From an uncultured Gammaproteobacteria bacterium (lineage in GTDB: Bacteria; Pseudomonadota; Gammaproteobacteria; DRLM01), in contig CAVSNY010000005.1 of NCBI GenBank assembly GCA_963729605.1, positions 1 to 64,000 of the forward strand: DNA of 64,000 nt. The letters run 5' to 3'. Below the pieces are notes generated by a model, which saw nothing but the letters and a program-made list of their open reading frames with translations, was not told where the DNA came from and ran no database searches. Below, piece by piece: positions 7,955 to 15,887 of the stretch. Numbering within the stretch: position 1 is the first letter of the stretch; the number at the start of each line of letters is the position of its first letter. The position numbers were made by a program, and so were the translations under genes.

Positions 7955-8143
7955 TCATTTGCTACCGCAAGTATTGACCCCGAGTATCGAATACAGAGGG
8001 CAGATTTTCACCACCCCGGTCAGCAAAGGAAGAATACCTATCCAAGCCCATACCCCCAAGACACCTGACGCCGCGCCGGCGATCAACGCAACCCCCACCC
8101 CGATACGCAAGCCCCGATCTATCGTCCCCACATTCGCTTTCAT
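7955..8143 (-). CDS. DUF2892 / YgaP-like small membrane protein
   Basis: NVGTIDRGLRI...CPLYSILGVNTC; AGAGGAG RBS. Confidence 0.9.
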   Translation of the reverse strand: MKANVGTIDRGLRIGVGVALIAGAASGVLGVWAWIGILPLLTGVVKICPLYSILGVNTCGSK

Positions 8144-8221
8144 GGCTATTACTCCTCTTTTAATGTGATTAATGTACCCAAGCAAAAGAATTCCTTCCAC
8201 CTCTGTGAATGCCCAGGCGGA

Positions 8222-9496
8222 TCAGCGCTCCAGCCGTTCGATGCCCAGCGCCTTCAGCACGTATTTTTCGAAGATGTGCTCCGAGGTGCCGGTCTTCATC
8301 TTGCGCATGAAATATTTCTCGAAGGCCACCTTGGCGAGGTGCACCCACTTGCCCTTCTTGAACCAGTTGACGTTGCGCGGCGGGATCTGCGGCAGGGCGA
8401 CGAAGGCCGCGCCGGTGTCGCCCATGTCGGCGAGACAGATCGCGTTCCACGTCGCCTTGGCCTCGGCCGGCTTGCCGTTGATGTCGGCGGCGATGTTCTC
8501 GACGATGGCCGTCACCATGGTCTCGATCATGTAACCGGTCTTGGGCGCGCCGGTCGGCACTGGCGTGACCTCGACCGGCGGGATGGCGACGCAGACCCCG
8601 GCGGCGAAGATGTTGCTGTGCTTCTTGCTGCGCTGGTGCGCGTCGATGAGCACGAAGCCGCGCGGATTGCACAGGCCTTCGACGTTGGCGACGGCGTCAA
8701 CGCCCTTGAAGGCCGGCAGCATCATCGCGAACTTGAACGGGACCTCATGCTGCTTGACTTCGTTGCCGTGCATGTCGAGCTCGGTGGCGTGAAGTCTGCC
8801 CTCCTCCACCCGCGTGGTGCGCGCGTTGGTGATCCATTTGATGTCGTGATTGCGGAATTCGCTCTCCAGCATGCCCTTGGAATCGCCGACCCCGCCGAGG
8901 CCGAGGTGGCCGATGTAGGGCTCGCTGGTGACGAAGGTGATGGGAAATTTGTTGCGGAGTTTGCGCTTGCGCAGGTCGTTGTCGACGATCAGCGCGAACT
9001 CATAGGCAGGACCGAAACACGACGCGCCCGGCATGGCGCCGATCACGATCGGACCCGGCTCCTGCAACAGCCGGCGATAGTGTTCCCAGGTCGCGGCCGC
9101 GTGCTCGGTGGTGCAGATCGAATGCGTGTAACCGCCCTGCGGCCCCGCGCCCGGCACCTCCTCGAAGGCCAGCCGCGGCCCGGTGGTGATGACCAGATAG
9201 TCGTAATTCACCGACTCACCGCCGTCGAGCAGCAGCCGGTTTTCGTCGGCGGCGATCTTCTCCACGCGTTTGGCGATGAAGCGGATGCCCTTCTTTTCGA
9301 GATAGGGCGCGATGGGAAAGGTGATGTCCTCGCGATCTCGCCAGCCCACCGCTAGCCAGGGATTGGACGGCACGAACTGAAAATAATCGACGGCGTTGAT
9401 CACCGTGATGGCGTGGCTCTTGTCGAGCTTGTTGCGCAACTCATACGCGGCGGGCATACCGCCGATACCTGCGCCGATGACGACGATATGGGCCAT
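8222..9496 (-). CDS. sqr: Sulfide:quinone oxidoreductase
   Basis: GAGIGG FAD motif, [36 protein letters not shown]; three conserved Cys present. Confidence 0.94.
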
Positions 9497-9548
9497 GATT
9501 CTCTCCTTTGTCTAAATACGGTTGATTGAAAACTAATTCGCCGCCGGT

Positions 9549-10925
9549 CTAATCACGCAGCGCCTCGTTCACTTCCTGCAACTTGGCCTCGTCGAGTTCA
9601 CCGGCCGCCGCATAGACGTCGAGCCGGGCGATGAACGAGGCATAACGGGCGGCCGCGAGATCGCGCCGCACGATCTGCAAGGCCTGCTCGGCGTCCAGCA
9701 CGTCGATCGCCGGCCGCTCGCCGACGGCAAAGCCGGTCTGGTTCGCGTCCAGCCGCGCCTGCGCCGAACTCAGCGCCGCCTCGAGCGCGGCGACTTCAGC
9801 GCGCCGCGCGACCAGCGCCAGCCAGGCCTCGCGCAGCGCGCGGTTCACCTCCTGCTCCGCCGCCGCGAGCGCGGCCTGTGATTTTTTCTTGAGCAGCACC
9901 GCCTCCTGCGATTTCGCGCCGCGCATGCCGCCGGTCCACAGCGGTACGTTCACTTGCACGCCGATCACACGATCCGACGCTGTATTCACCGCGTCCGCGC
10001 CATAACCGCTGCCTGAGAGACGGTCGCCCTCGATGCGTGCGTAGGCGTCGACCGTCGGTGACAGCGCGGCGCGCAGCCGCGCGACATCGGCGTCGGCGAT
10101 GTCGATCTGCAAGCGGCTGCGTTTGACCGTGGGATTATTGTTCGCGGCGCGCCGCTGCCACGCCTCGAACGCAGCGGCGCCGCCGATGGGATCGGCGGCG
10201 GCGACCGCCGGCCGCGCCAGCCGGAAATCGCTTTTTCCCGTTAAATCCGCGAGGCGGCCGCGGCGCAGCGCGAGCTCGTTGCGCGCGCCGACCAACTGCG
10301 CGGTAATGAGATCGAAACGCGCCCGCGCATCGCTCTGGTCGGTCACCGGCGCGTCGCCGGCCTGATAACGGGCATGCGCCTGCTCCATCGCCTCGCGCGC
10401 CGCCGCCTCCAGCGCGGTCAGCGCCGCGACACCGTCTTCCGCCGCCAGCACGGCGAAATAGGCCTGCGCCACGTGCAGCATCAACGCCTGCCGCGCCGCG
10501 TCGATCGACACGCCGCCGAGTTCGGCCTGCGTACCGAGCTGGCGCGCGGCGGCGTCGCGGTCCGCGTCATAGAGGCTGTGGCTCAGCGTCAGCGACCAGC
10601 CGAGGCCAACCGCGTCGGCGTAGCGCGTGTCGAAATCGACGCCGGTCTGCGTGCCGAAGGCCGGGCTCGAAAAGCGTGCGCCGCTGACATTGCGTTCGCT
10701 GGTCTGATAACGCGCGCCGGCGCCGAGCAGCAACTGTGGTGAATCGAGTGCCGCCGCCTGCCCACGTTTCCGCTGATCGGCCTCGCCCTGGGCGAGGGTC
10801 GCGGCGTAGTCCGGATTGTGTTCCGCGGCGGCACGCCACAACGCCACGAGGTCACCTTCCGCCCGCGCCGCCGAGACGAATACCAGTGATGACAGCGCGA
10901 GGGCAATGTTGAGTAGCTTGGTCAT
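9549..10925 (-). CDS. TolC-family outer membrane efflux channel
   Basis: Signal peptide, two helical OEP repeats, VPLWTGG, GERPAIDVLDAE. Confidence 0.9.
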   Translation of the reverse strand: MTKLLNIALALSSLVFVSAARAEGDLVALWRAAAEHNPDYAATLAQGEADQRKRGQAAALDSPQLLLGAGARYQTSERNVSGARFSSPAFGTQTGVDFDTRYADAVGLGWSLTLSHSLYDADRDAAARQLGTQAELGGVSIDAARQALMLHVAQAYFAVLAAEDGVAALTALEAAAREAMEQAHARYQAGDAPVTDQSDARARFDLITAQLVGARNELALRRGRLADLTGKSDFRLARPAVAAADPIGGAAAFEAWQRRAANNNPTVKRSRLQIDIADADVARLRAALSPTVDAYARIEGDRLSGSGYGADAVNTASDRVIGVQVNVPLWTGGMRGAKSQEAVLLKKKSQAALAAAEQEVNRALREAWLALVARRAEVAALEAALSSAQARLDANQTGFAVGERPAIDVLDAEQALQIVRRDLAAARYASFIARLDVYAAAGELDEAKLQEVNEALRD

Positions 10926-10935
10926 CTCACCACAC

Positions 10936-14355: not shown

Positions 14356-14365
14356 CGCGGCCGCC

Positions 14366-15394
14366 TCAATGACTCACCGCCGCGGCGGCGACGGGATCGA
14401 GCGCGACGCGCTCGCCCTCGCTGACACCGGCGAGGATTTCGACGCGATCCTGCCGCGCCGCGCCCACTCGCACCTGACGCAGCGCCGCCTTGCCGGCGGC
14501 ATCGACCACGTATACCGCGGTAAGCTCGGCGCGGCGGACCACGGCGCTCGCGGGCACGCTGAGGCGGGCGCCGGCCGCGCCGCCGTCCGACAACCACGCG
14601 CGCGCGAACAGGCCCGGCATCACCCCGGCCGGCGTCGGCGGCAGCTCCAGGCGGACTTGCGCGGTGTGGCTCGCCCCGTCGGCGGTCGGCAGCAGCGTCA
14701 CCGCGCGCGGCTTGATCCAGCGCGCGGCCTCGGGCAGCGTGGGAATCTCGATTTTTTCCGCGCCGTCGAACCGGAGATCCGCGACCTCGGTTTGCGGCAC
14801 GTTCACCGTCACGCGCAGCGCGGCCGGATCGAACAGACTGATGAGGGGACGGCCGGGCATGGCCATGTCGCCGAGTGATACGTCGACGCTGGCGATGCGG
14901 CCGGCGTACGGCGCGGTCACGTTATGCAGCGAGGTTCCCACCTCGGCCACGGCCGCCTCGGCCAGTTGGGCTTCGACGCCGGCCTGGGTCGCTAGAAATT
15001 GCGCGTGCGCCCGCTCCAGCGCCGTCTGGCTGATGTAGTTTTTCCGCGCCAGCAGTTCGGCGCGCTCGTATTCTTTTTGTGCGGCGAACAGCCGCGCCTC
15101 CGCCGCCTTGACCTGCGCCGCGCTCGCCGCCGCGGTCTTGCCGGCGGCACGGGCATCGATACGCGCCAGCAGCTGGCCGGCGCTGACCCGGTCGCCCGCT
15201 TTTACGTATAATGCGGTGATTCTGCCCGGCACTTGGGCGGCCAGCACGGTCTGGCGCACGGCCTCGACCACACCCTCGGCCAGGTAACCGCCGCCGGCGC
15301 CGGTGCGTTCGACGGGCGCGGTCCGCGGCGGTTCGGCCTGGACGACCCCGGCCCACAAGATCAAACTCACGACGGCGATATACGAGATACGCAT
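14366..15394 (-). CDS. RND periplasmic adaptor (membrane fusion protein)
   Basis: GRITALYVKAGDRVSAGQLL, APYAGRI, PGLFAR, VEILAGV. Confidence 0.92.
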   Translation of the reverse strand: MRISYIAVVSLILWAGVVQAEPPRTAPVERTGAGGGYLAEGVVEAVRQTVLAAQVPGRITALYVKAGDRVSAGQLLARIDARAAGKTAAASAAQVKAAEARLFAAQKEYERAELLARKNYISQTALERAHAQFLATQAGVEAQLAEAAVAEVGTSLHNVTAPYAGRIASVDVSLGDMAMPGRPLISLFDPAALRVTVNVPQTEVADLRFDGAEKIEIPTLPEAARWIKPRAVTLLPTADGASHTAQVRLELPPTPAGVMPGLFARAWLSDGGAAGARLSVPASAVVRRAELTAVYVVDAAGKAALRQVRVGAARQDRVEILAGVSEGERVALDPVAAAAVSH

Positions 15395-15478
15395 GAGACT
15401 CCCCTTTCCAACCGGCCATCCCAAGGACCCTGCGACCCGCCTGTGGCGGCCCCGGGAGGATTGCTTCTGTGTCGTTAT

Positions 15479-15500
15479 TATGTAACTATGTAGTTATGTA
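15479..15500. promoter_or_regulatory. Putative ArsR/SmtB operator in divergent promoter
   Basis: Perfect TAACTA-TG-TAGTTA inverted repeat (15483-15496) in an AT-rich patch between arsR and the efflux operon. Confidence 0.65.
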
Positions 15501-15518
15501 GTCAATAAGAGAATTGCC

Positions 15519-15887
15519 ATGCCCAACTACAAGCCCAAGCCCAGTAAGGCCCTGGCGAAACTGGACGACAAGGCCCTCCAGCATGTCGCGGATTACTTCA
15601 AGCTGCTGTCGGAACCGACGCGGCTGAAGATTCTGAATATCCTGCGGGAGGGTGAATGCAATGTCGGAGAACTCTGCGCCCAGATCGGCGGCAGCCAGGC
15701 CAATATCTCCAAACATCTGGGTCAGCTGGCGCAGGCAGGACTGGTGGAACGCACCACCCGGGGAACGGCGGCCTACTACGTGATCACCGATCCCAGTATT
15801 TACGCCCTGTGCGATCTGGTGTGCGGCCAGGTCGCCGCGCGTCTCGAAAAACACGCGGCCATGCGCGCGATGTTCGGTAAGACTTGA
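15519..15887 (+). CDS. ArsR/SmtB-family transcriptional repressor
   Basis: FKLLSEPTRLKIL, SQANISKHL winged helix; four Cys. Confidence 0.92.
   Translation: MPNYKPKPSKALAKLDDKALQHVADYFKLLSEPTRLKILNILREGECNVGELCAQIGGSQANISKHLGQLAQAGLVERTTRGTAAYYVITDPSIYALCDLVCGQVAARLEKHAAMRAMFGKT

Follow-up and report, generated by a model that had tools for sequence, protein, structure and literature searches.

A type I sulfide:quinone oxidoreductase gene clustered with a tripartite RND pump and two DUF2892 proteins in an uncultured gammaproteobacterium

Results

Organisation of the gene cluster

The subject of this study is a run of six genes that unites a complete resistance-nodulation-division (RND) efflux pump with a sulfide:quinone oxidoreductase (Sqr) and two small DUF2892 membrane proteins, here named DUFa and DUFb. 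It is located on a 64,000-nucleotide stretch of DNA from an uncultured Gammaproteobacteria bacterium (assembly GCA_963729605.1, contig CAVSNY010000005.1, positions 1–64,000), and this whole stretch is referred to as the window. The list of open reading frames (ORFs) together with profile searches revealed the minus-strand gene order MFP-RND-DUFa-TolC-Sqr-DUFb within positions 7955–15424. The first gene encodes a periplasmic adaptor, or membrane fusion protein (MFP; 14366–15394; 342 amino acids; TIGR01730). It is followed by the genes for the RND permease (11164–14355; 1063 amino acids; PF00873, E = 1.2e-147), DUFa (10936–11145; 69 amino acids, two helices; PF11127, E = 8.6e-11), a TolC-family outer-membrane channel (9549–10925; two PF02321 repeats, E = 1.3e-47), Sqr (8222–9496; 424 amino acids) and DUFb (7955–8143; 62 amino acids; PF11127, E = 1.9e-21). 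An ArsR/SmtB-family repressor of the C-x3-C type (PF01022, E = 1.7e-15) is encoded divergently from the pump operon on the plus strand at 15519–15887. The initial annotation had described the six-gene run and the divergent ArsR gene; all of them were found in place and three start codons were corrected. Most likely, the MFP gene starts with the ATG at 15394 (alternative start at 15424), the TolC gene with the ATG at 10925, which leads to a signal-peptide-like N-terminus (TTG alternative at 10958), and the DUFb gene with the ATG at 8143, which has a good ribosome site, rather than with the GTG at 8200.

The intergenic gaps, read from MFP to DUFb, amount to about 10, 18, 10, 52 and 78 bp, so that none exceeds 78 bp. 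A promoter scan of the operon region detected one strong sigma-70-like site, which is situated in the ArsR-MFP spacer on the minus strand (15505–15477; TTGACT, 17 nt, CATAAT; 10 of 12 matches). This promoter is overlapped by a 22-nt imperfect palindrome, TACATAACTACATAGTTACATA (15479–15500), which is a candidate ArsR operator; it was found by an inverted-repeat script, and a repeat finder reported nothing in this spacer at its settings. Downstream of DUFb, a stem-loop with a 13-bp stem and without a U tract (7795–7823, minus strand) has a folding energy of -25.6 kcal/mol (z = -5.9), none of 200 shuffled sequences being equally stable, and it likely marks the transcript end. Because of the short gaps, the single strong promoter and the strong hairpin after DUFb, the six minus-strand genes are likely co-transcribed.

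The sulfide:quinone oxidoreductase

The window Sqr matched the structure of Acidithiobacillus ferrooxidans SQR (PDB code 3sz0) with E = 1.1e-181 over residues 2–423 and that of Aquifex aeolicus SQR (3hyv) with E = 8.7e-115, while the human enzyme and other SQR types gave E-values of 1e-13 or weaker. Its residues Cys128, Cys160 and Cys354 align with cysteines of the solved A. ferrooxidans enzyme, for which Cys128, Cys160 and Cys356 are described as catalytic and their roles are given (PMC6335251). The same source proposes that close relatives of the window Sqr face the periplasm. By homology, the window enzyme is a type I sulfide:quinone oxidoreductase. The initial annotation had listed neither a persulfide dioxygenase nor a rhodanese in the operon. 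This absence extends further, as profile searches of the window detected no persulfide dioxygenase, rhodanese or other sulfur-oxidation gene in the operon flanks either.

The efflux pump

PF00873 spans residues 21–1054 of the 1063 residues of the permease. Its hydropathy profile, with 1 + 6 and 5 hydrophobic segments and two long loops, corresponds to the AcrB-type architecture, and acidic residues were read from the sequence in transmembrane helix 4. The adaptor and the outer-membrane factor are encoded alongside the permease, as in a tripartite pump. The MFP scored 190.6 bits against TIGR01730 (cut-off 94.9) and also matched PF16576 and PF13533; the TolC protein scored 203.4 bits against TIGR01844, under the cut-off of 225.

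The permease itself is poorly covered by curated models. The best NCBIfam model, NF033617, gave 459.9 bits versus a cut-off of 1250, and all 15 models listed stayed below their cut-offs. Among these, the CusA/CzcA model TIGR00914 reached 250.6 versus 701.45 bits, and multidrug-type models scored higher. The nearest solved RND structure, 6vej, was matched with only 224.6 bits. Relatives of 73–76% identity are common in Burkholderiales and carry generic names only; in a library clustered at 50% identity, graded relatives were found down to about 30% identity. The window RND is a member of a distinct subfamily that reaches none of the curated NCBIfam cut-offs.

The permease was aligned with 14 relatives of 40–74% identity. 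The family carries the motif M-G-P-Y-M-S-P-I at RND residues 473–483 (window positions about 12907–12939), with Met475 and Met479 invariant. The motif is highly specific to the family: a genome scan with it and one other pattern matched 869 stretches, 868 of which encode RND relatives.

The RND, the MFP and the mature TolC protein of the window contain no cysteine. Avoidance of cysteine was considered as a sign of a thiol-reactive substrate and dropped, because it is not specific to the family: 59 of 66 family RNDs are free of cysteine, yet so are 14 of 25 distant RNDs (<36% identity). An apparent RND-Sqr fusion (P0273) was rejected as a frameshift artefact, as an out-of-frame arginine-rich stretch precedes its Sqr part. 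Fusions of another kind were observed in the set P0274–P0302, which contains many RNDs of about 1350 amino acids that are 44–47% identical to a family member and carry a fused universal-stress-protein domain (PF00582), for example in Acidobacteriota; other matches have a fused TolC-family domain (PF02321).

The DUF2892 proteins

DUF2892 is known as the membrane part of the rhodanese YgaP. PF11127 matched DUFb with 76.4 and DUFa with 42.3 bits (gathering score 25.3). Both proteins are 62–69 amino acids long and have no other domain, so that the fused rhodanese of YgaP proper is missing. The only solved structure matched by the DUFa profile was the YgaP membrane domain (2mpn, E = 8e-6). The cysteines quoted in the initial annotation are present in both proteins, with differing conservation in DUFa. 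An alignment of 53 rows revealed the invariant residues G12, F40, G42, N44, Q47, C54 and G64, and C54 was also invariant in an alignment of 57 rows; a cysteine in the DUFa tail occurs at varying positions and in 40 of the 57 rows. As judged by eye from hydropathy and the positive-inside rule, C54 is predicted to be placed where helix 2 ends on the cytoplasmic side. Within this helix, two further invariant residues, Asn44 and Gln47, shortly precede Cys54 (residues 40–64, window 10954–11028). Their polar nature suggests that the helix does not simply anchor the protein in the membrane but forms a site of binding or conduction. An alignment-based complex prediction of DUFa with two cuts of the RND (residues 1–575 and 885–1063) gave a score of 0.00, in a job that differed from those on which the tool was calibrated and that used these cuts in place of the whole chain; this score weighs neither for nor against binding.

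DUFb is a canonical, YgaP-like DUF2892 protein with a C-P-L-Y motif and a further cysteine near its end. A copy of 58% identity is encoded after Sqr on plasmid p1 of Methylocella tundrae, and in two of the loci described below (L026 and L066) the DUFb gene is situated just downstream of the ArsR gene. In the literature searched on pump substrates and DUF2892, we found no function for stand-alone DUF2892 proteins.

Neighbourhood of close RND relatives

The best 80 stretches of the genome scan were kept, corresponding to 78 loci with an RND identity of 55–74%. These were searched with the seven proteins of the window (tblastn) and with hidden Markov models (HMMs) built from the matches, and ORFs were called mechanically. 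DUFa was counted where a locus extended for at least 1.5 kb upstream and 0.4 kb downstream (56 loci), and sqr where it extended for at least 4 kb upstream and 4.5 kb downstream (48 loci), type I sqr being defined by at least 55% identity to that of the window.

In 45 of the 56 evaluable loci, MFP-RND has a DUFa-type gene as its neighbour, downstream in 38 and upstream in 7. Type I sqr was detected near the RND gene in 14 of the 48 loci evaluable for it (and in 16 when all 78 are counted), a TolC gene at the position found in the window in 10 of 48, and DUFb in only a few loci. Three gene orders with sqr were observed: that of the window, ArsR followed by MFP-RND-DUFa-TolC-Sqr, in L007, L008, L012, L015, L016, L023 and L066; MFP-RND-Sqr-DUFa in L051, L054, L057, L063 and L073; and Sqr-DUFa-MFP-RND in L075. 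A tie of the RND family to sulfide and reactive-sulfur genes, which the initial annotation had proposed to test by neighbourhood analysis, is supported by these counts. The arrangement in the window is far beyond chance: related loci repeat the pairing of RND and DUFa in 45 of 56 cases and the presence of sqr in 14 of 48.

A FastTree tree was calculated from 66 full-length RND rows; 13 loci were left out as short and another because of an internal stop. The window RND falls inside a clade of 21 rows with a local support of 99, and among the 49 evaluable rows of the tree the state of sqr switches at least 11 times. Six of the 11 evaluable loci without DUFa belong to a gammaproteobacterial subclade of seven rows (L053, L060, L064, L065, L071, L072 and L074). 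In several members of this subclade, the place just downstream of the RND gene is taken by a LysR gene, AhpC and a conserved protein of 120 amino acids without a Pfam match. In L065, a small TusA-like ORF, recognised by eye, is located upstream of MFP.

Beyond the core, the flanks are not conserved, as 715 unlabelled ORFs fell into 617 clusters. Representatives of 48 of the 54 neighbour clusters present in at least two loci were scanned. The sulfide- or redox-related ones encode rhodanese (8 loci), CsoR-like proteins (6 and 3 loci), thioredoxin 2 (5 loci) and OsmC (4 loci); CydA/CydB, TauE, AhpC and a sigma-54 activator also recur, and most other shared clusters are housekeeping genes.

Distant relatives on plasmids

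In a plasmid collection, 76 records contained an RND match, all below 60% identity. We inspected nine loci with RNDs 35–56% identical to that of the window, from Vibrio sp. HDW18, Azospirillum argentinense, Pseudanabaena sp., Methylocella tundrae, Rhizobium sp. SL42, Chondrinema litorale, Rhizorhabdus wittichii, Paracoccus denitrificans PD1222 and Legionella pneumophila, that is from Alpha- and Gammaproteobacteria, Cyanobacteria and Bacteroidota. An annotated DUF2892 gene is located within 5 kb of the RND gene in all nine. Sqr of 39–58% identity is encoded in four of them, and several add rhodanese and ArsR. The Methylocella locus, with ArsR and then MFP-RND-ArsR-DUFa-Sqr-DUFb, nearly reproduces the order in the window.

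The reverse comparison, cross-matched by hand, started from 40 plasmid records with a DUFa match, and in 33 of these a family RND is encoded within 5 kb. Three records were missing from the RND list, which showed 60 of the 76 records. The other four lack an RND nearby: in a Pseudanabaena record the two genes are separated by 91 kb, and the rest are from Rhodococcus (two records) and Paenarthrobacter (one record). Because 33 of 40 records pair DUFa with a family RND, DUFa is, as far as gene neighbourhoods tell, a near-dedicated partner of this RND family. The initial annotation, which had supposed that similar clusters probably exist elsewhere, had understated their spread, since the module is found in three phyla or more and two publications have already noted it.

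Two plasmid loci deserve description. Conjugative plasmids of Legionella pneumophila (L087, locus 1939–7198) carry ArsR-TolC-RND-DUFa beside a heavy-metal P-type ATPase and a second ArsR, with 35% identity to the window for RND and 60% for DUFa; the PLSDB gene table, which is incomplete, shows no gene for an adaptor in the interval from TolC to RND. On plasmid 1 of Paracoccus denitrificans PD1222 (L086, locus 2920–13222), DUFa-MFP-RND is part of a larger sulfur island with an MBL-fold hydrolase, a second DUF2892 protein, YeeE/YedE-family genes, a TIGR01244 sulfurtransferase, ArsR and cytochromes; its FAD oxidoreductase is only 22% identical to the window Sqr.

Regulators of the pump family

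The window ArsR has cysteines at positions 47, 53, 98 and 102, Cys98 and Cys102 being situated in the last helix. It scored 85.5 bits against NF033788 (cut-off 55) and 44.4 against the BigR model (cut-off 155), and the position of the first sensing cysteine of BigR is occupied by Asn40. For both reasons, its sequence places it outside the SqrR/BigR family, though its gene is found at the equivalent place. The initial annotation had pointed out that some ArsR proteins (SqrR, BigR) sense persulfides; the cysteine-bearing repressor of the window is not a canonical member of that kind and has a C-x3-C pair instead.

An alignment of 28 ArsR proteins whose genes adjoin family pumps separated two patterns. 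Fifteen are of the C-x3-C type of the window (49–58% identity); C98 and C102 are kept in all 14 full-length members, and C47 and C53 have a cysteine in the same column in none. The remaining 13 have the two-cysteine SqrR/BigR pattern with one cysteine in helix 2 and one near the C-terminus, and include the Sqr loci L008, L015 and L075. CsoR-like neighbours were of the two-cysteine type in eight of nine rows, the ninth being a mis-called ORF. In 9 of 14 spacers between window-type ArsR and MFP genes, an AT-rich palindrome at a TTGACT-like box was the best or second-best inverted repeat; a TTGACT-like box was visible by eye in three of the other five spacers.

Surroundings of the cluster in the window

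The flanks encode housekeeping functions, namely formaldehyde detoxification, a Tim44-like protein, tRNA-Asn, an Smr-like ORF (recognised by eye) and mfd. The formaldehyde detoxification pair is glutathione-dependent (4258–6509, plus strand) and consists of an S-(hydroxymethyl)glutathione dehydrogenase (TIGR02818, 613.7 bits) and an S-formylglutathione hydrolase (TIGR02821, 479.4 bits), both above the cut-offs. The gene for tRNA-Asn (16048–16123, minus strand) adjoins the ArsR gene, and a strong terminator is found at 16010–16039. A further tRNA-Gly(ccc), called by ARAGORN inside the TolC frame (10149–10224, minus strand), is most likely false and owed to G+C-rich coding DNA. The G+C content is 0.67 across the cluster (10–16 kb) and 0.59–0.60 in the left flank, and the nearest named relatives of the window RND are from Betaproteobacteria; the cluster may be an acquired island. 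The distal part of the window (44000–64000) has a low G+C content of 0.45–0.54 and encodes glycosyltransferases, a sulfotransferase, GtrA and a Wzt-type ABC ATPase. This part differs in composition from the rest of the window and resembles a cluster for surface polysaccharides.

Discussion

Published evidence on related clusters

In the literature searched on the linkage of sqr with pumps, we found two relevant papers, and neither, in the parts available, defines the pump family, its DUF2892 partner or its substrate. One of them describes the genes Dsui_3440–3443 of Azospira suillum PS, which encode DUF2892, RND, SQR and MFP proteins (Mehta-Kolte et al. 2017, PMC5358917). These were among the most sulfide-induced genes, with RNA-seq log2 values rising from about 1–4 to 8.6–10.6. 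The mean fitness of transposon mutants in the absence of a stressor, under 1 mM H2S and after a 1 mM spike was -0.76, -2.21 and -2.69 for RND and -0.81, -2.12 and -2.63 for MFP. The SQR mutant showed little change (-0.75, -0.86 and -1.17), and the DUF2892 mutant was nearly neutral (-0.08, -0.15 and -0.33). The authors assigned no substrate and suggested export of metal sulfides (PMC5358917). The Azospira operon thus resembles that of the window in gene content, is induced by sulfide, and its RND and MFP mutants are sick under H2S; it differs in that no TolC, second DUF2892 or ArsR is listed and in that SQR is numbered between MFP and RND. The matches listed in our search for the Azospira pump (at least 120, all at least 87% identical) came from Azonexus, Dechloromonas or Ferribacterium, and Azospira was absent among them.

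The second paper, on Hyphomicrobium (Li/Dahl group, PMC12423496), reports that genes of a clade of two-cysteine ArsR proteins, including Rhodobacter capsulatus SqrR, adjoin RND genes, and its Supplementary Table 1 links SqrR and SqrR-like genes of about ten other species to an RND transporter. The likeness to the window is an ArsR gene beside an RND pump in sulfur-oxidising or sulfide-exposed bacteria. The difference is in the regulator, with asparagine in place of the first sensing cysteine and a C-x3-C pair. The pumps of that paper are likened to ours by the listed linkage, the pump family and its function being outside its analysis as far as available (PMC12423496). The available parts of papers on selenium in P. 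putida, polysulfide in R. capsulatus and the Thiohalobacter genome contained nothing relevant to the pump. No outer-membrane transporter for polysulfide or elemental sulfur was found to be defined in the literature searched on pump substrates.

Proposed function

With moderate confidence, we propose that the cluster is a sulfide or reactive-sulfur stress operon, in which a complete pump under control of a repressor is encoded together with DUFa, a type I Sqr and DUFb. A link of the pump family to sulfide or reactive sulfur is well supported by the partners, the regulators, the repeated coupling to sqr and the Azospira phenotype, and related clusters probably protect cells from sulfide. The C-x3-C ArsR would bind the promoter palindrome and would be released when sulfane sulfur derived from sulfide modifies its cysteine pair. 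Sqr, an enzyme assigned by homology, would act at the inner membrane, on the side suggested by its relatives, and convert sulfide to polysulfide or S8-type sulfane sulfur. RND pumps capture their substrates from the periplasm or the outer leaflet. From there, the window RND may take up the product of Sqr or another thiol-reactive or hydrophobic sulfur species, and expulsion through TolC would prevent self-poisoning, a connection between pump and tolerance for which the Azospira operon of the same content provides the precedent. DUFa, as its co-occurrence with the pump suggests, would be a family-specific part of the pump system, most likely an accessory or regulatory subunit on the RND membrane domain or a small inner-membrane conduit through which cytoplasmic sulfur species come within the pump's reach.

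Sulfane sulfur is therefore a plausible substrate as judged from the genes. That the pump exports the product of Sqr is a reasonable inference because close relatives of this Sqr are proposed to face the periplasm, RND pumps take up substrates there, the operon lacks an enzyme consuming sulfane sulfur, and the Azospira pump mutant was sicker than the sqr mutant. Going further, and tentatively, MFP-RND-DUF2892 may be a widespread and dedicated exporter that moves zero-valent sulfur (polysulfide or S8) formed by a periplasm-facing type I Sqr across the outer membrane, with DUFa as a new kind of cysteine-bearing RND subunit that gates or feeds it.

Several observations weigh against this proposal. 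In Azospira, deletion of the operon left the rate of perchlorate-dependent sulfide oxidation unchanged, and the membrane orientation of type I SQR is described as unsettled (PMC5358917; PMC6335251). Dsui_3441 is likened to our pump by gene content rather than by sequence. Within the family, sqr is absent nearby in 34 of 48 evaluable loci, so the pump does without an adjacent Sqr, and the seven-row subclade does without DUFa. The census counts are not independent events because the loci are related, and the tree is an approximate FastTree tree. The Legionella module adjoins a heavy-metal P-type ATPase. The window ArsR lacks the canonical SqrR/BigR cysteine pair, and since NCBIfam names it a metalloregulator, its signal may be a metal. 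Cys54 of DUFa, by the topology assigned by eye, would lie on the cytoplasmic side, away from the usual capture side of RND pumps, and the substrate of the pump is itself reached by inference.

Alternative explanations

The pump might instead be a general stress pump for organic thiol-reactive or membrane-damaging compounds that shares a sulfide-responsive regulon with Sqr and does not transport its product. The permease is closest to multidrug-type models for hydrophobes and amphiphiles and to solved multidrug-type pumps, and adjacent sqr is missing from 34 of 48 loci. The Azospira pump mutants, being sicker than the sqr mutant under H2S, could likewise indicate a substrate not made by Sqr alone (PMC5358917), but this phenotype fits a build-up of a toxic Sqr product equally well. 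Since the tight two-way link with a cysteine-bearing DUF2892 protein argues for a sulfur-specific task and sqr was joined repeatedly and independently in three gene orders, we consider a general pump somewhat unlikely. A lower rank is given to export of thiophilic metals or of metal-sulfide complexes that accumulate with sulfide, with a metal-sensing ArsR and an Sqr which merely lowers sulfide. Metal-sulfide export is what the Azospira authors proposed (PMC5358917). NF033788 describes ArsR metalloregulators, the C-x3-C pair could bind soft metals, Met475 and Met479 are invariant in a conserved RND loop, and the Legionella copy stands beside the P-type ATPase and a second ArsR. Against these points, the permease reached only 250.6 of the 701 bits demanded by the CusA/CzcA model and scored higher with multidrug-type models, and the recurrent neighbours are rhodanese, Sqr, TauE, CydAB and thioredoxin rather than metal chaperones or ATPases. 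Moreover, 13 sister loci have two-cysteine SqrR/BigR-like ArsR proteins and eight have two-cysteine CsoR-like proteins. Altogether, this makes a metal pump unlikely.

The mechanism put forward in the initial annotation, in which the DUF2892 proteins as cysteine-persulfide carriers pass sulfane sulfur from Sqr directly to the RND, draws on the invariance of Cys54 (53 and 57 rows), the Cys-Pro motif and second cysteine of DUFb, the recurrence of DUFa-Sqr-DUFb in Methylocella and the relation of DUF2892 to the rhodanese YgaP, whose membrane part 2mpn was matched here. This hand-off is the weakest part of the earlier reading and appears quite unlikely, because the conserved cysteine, by the topology read by eye, is predicted where helix 2 meets the cytoplasmic and not the periplasmic side, which is topologically awkward, the second DUFa cysteine occurs in only 40 of 57 rows at varying positions, DUFa accompanies the pump in many loci without Sqr, and the Azospira DUF2892 mutant had almost no H2S defect (PMC5358917). 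Furthermore, DUFb occurs in few loci, and RND, MFP and mature TolC offer no cysteine as a persulfide acceptor. For this reason, we prefer to regard DUFa as a putative pump-specific accessory or feeder. Finally, sqr and pump could be neighbours by coincidence and functionally unlinked, as sqr linkage was gained or lost often (11 changes) and is absent in most loci. A coincidence is hardly credible, since type I sqr is found within a few kb of the pump in 14 of 48 loci of a single RND family and in three orders, the linkage extends to distant phyla, and the genes are co-induced in Azospira (PMC5358917).

Relation to known systems

With our proposal of a sulfide or reactive-sulfur stress operon, the cluster of the window can be compared to several known systems. 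The AcrB pump is accompanied by the small protein AcrZ, and AcrAB-TolC thus has in common with the window system a tripartite MFP-RND-TolC composition, acidic residues in transmembrane helix 4 and a small membrane protein encoded with the pump. DUFa, however, is a two-helix DUF2892 protein, unrelated to AcrZ and tied to its pump by gene linkage, and the window RND is set apart from AcrAB-type pumps by its 224.6 bits to the best solved RND and its sub-cut-off model scores. CusCBA and CzcCBA are tripartite as well, and the window shares with them a regulator family that is often metal-sensing; it differs in having no periplasmic metal chaperone, in its sulfur-gene neighbours and in the score of 250.6 against 701. 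YgaV-YgaP of Escherichia coli likewise pairs an ArsR gene with a DUF2892 membrane domain, whereas the DUF2892 proteins of the window have no rhodanese domain, stand alone and, in one case, are tied to an RND pump.

The sqr-pdo(-rhodanese) operons and the Staphylococcus aureus cst operon combine Sqr with a persulfide-responsive regulator and serve sulfide detoxification. Their disposal route is oxidation to sulfite or thiosulfate. The operon of the window is similar in outline but has a type I Sqr and lacks persulfide dioxygenase and rhodanese, and disposal would be by efflux instead of oxidation. In sum, the window carries a variant of a module that has partly been noted in print before.

Implications

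If the substrate is a metal sulfide or an organic electrophile, the module would be a stress pump of the ordinary sort, albeit one whose small partner is unusual. If the proposed export of zero-valent sulfur is true, it would supply the step still lacking from the deposition of sulfur outside the cell and from detoxification of sulfide where no persulfide dioxygenase is present. This bears on two open questions, namely by which route oxidised sulfur gets out of Gram-negative cells and how self-poisoning with sulfane sulfur is avoided in cells with Sqr and without persulfide dioxygenase. The window offers a clean, complete example of a compact module in which a repressor accompanies a pump that has its own TolC, together with Sqr and two DUF2892 proteins. 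According to our census, conservation of the module reaches from Betaproteobacteria to Cyanobacteria and Bacteroidota, and in one organism a module of the same content has a sulfide-fitness phenotype. It is therefore a candidate for both a new class of RND substrate and a new RND-associated small protein, and it provides a likely context for a large family of genes that are annotated only as "efflux RND transporter permease" or "DUF2892 domain-containing protein".

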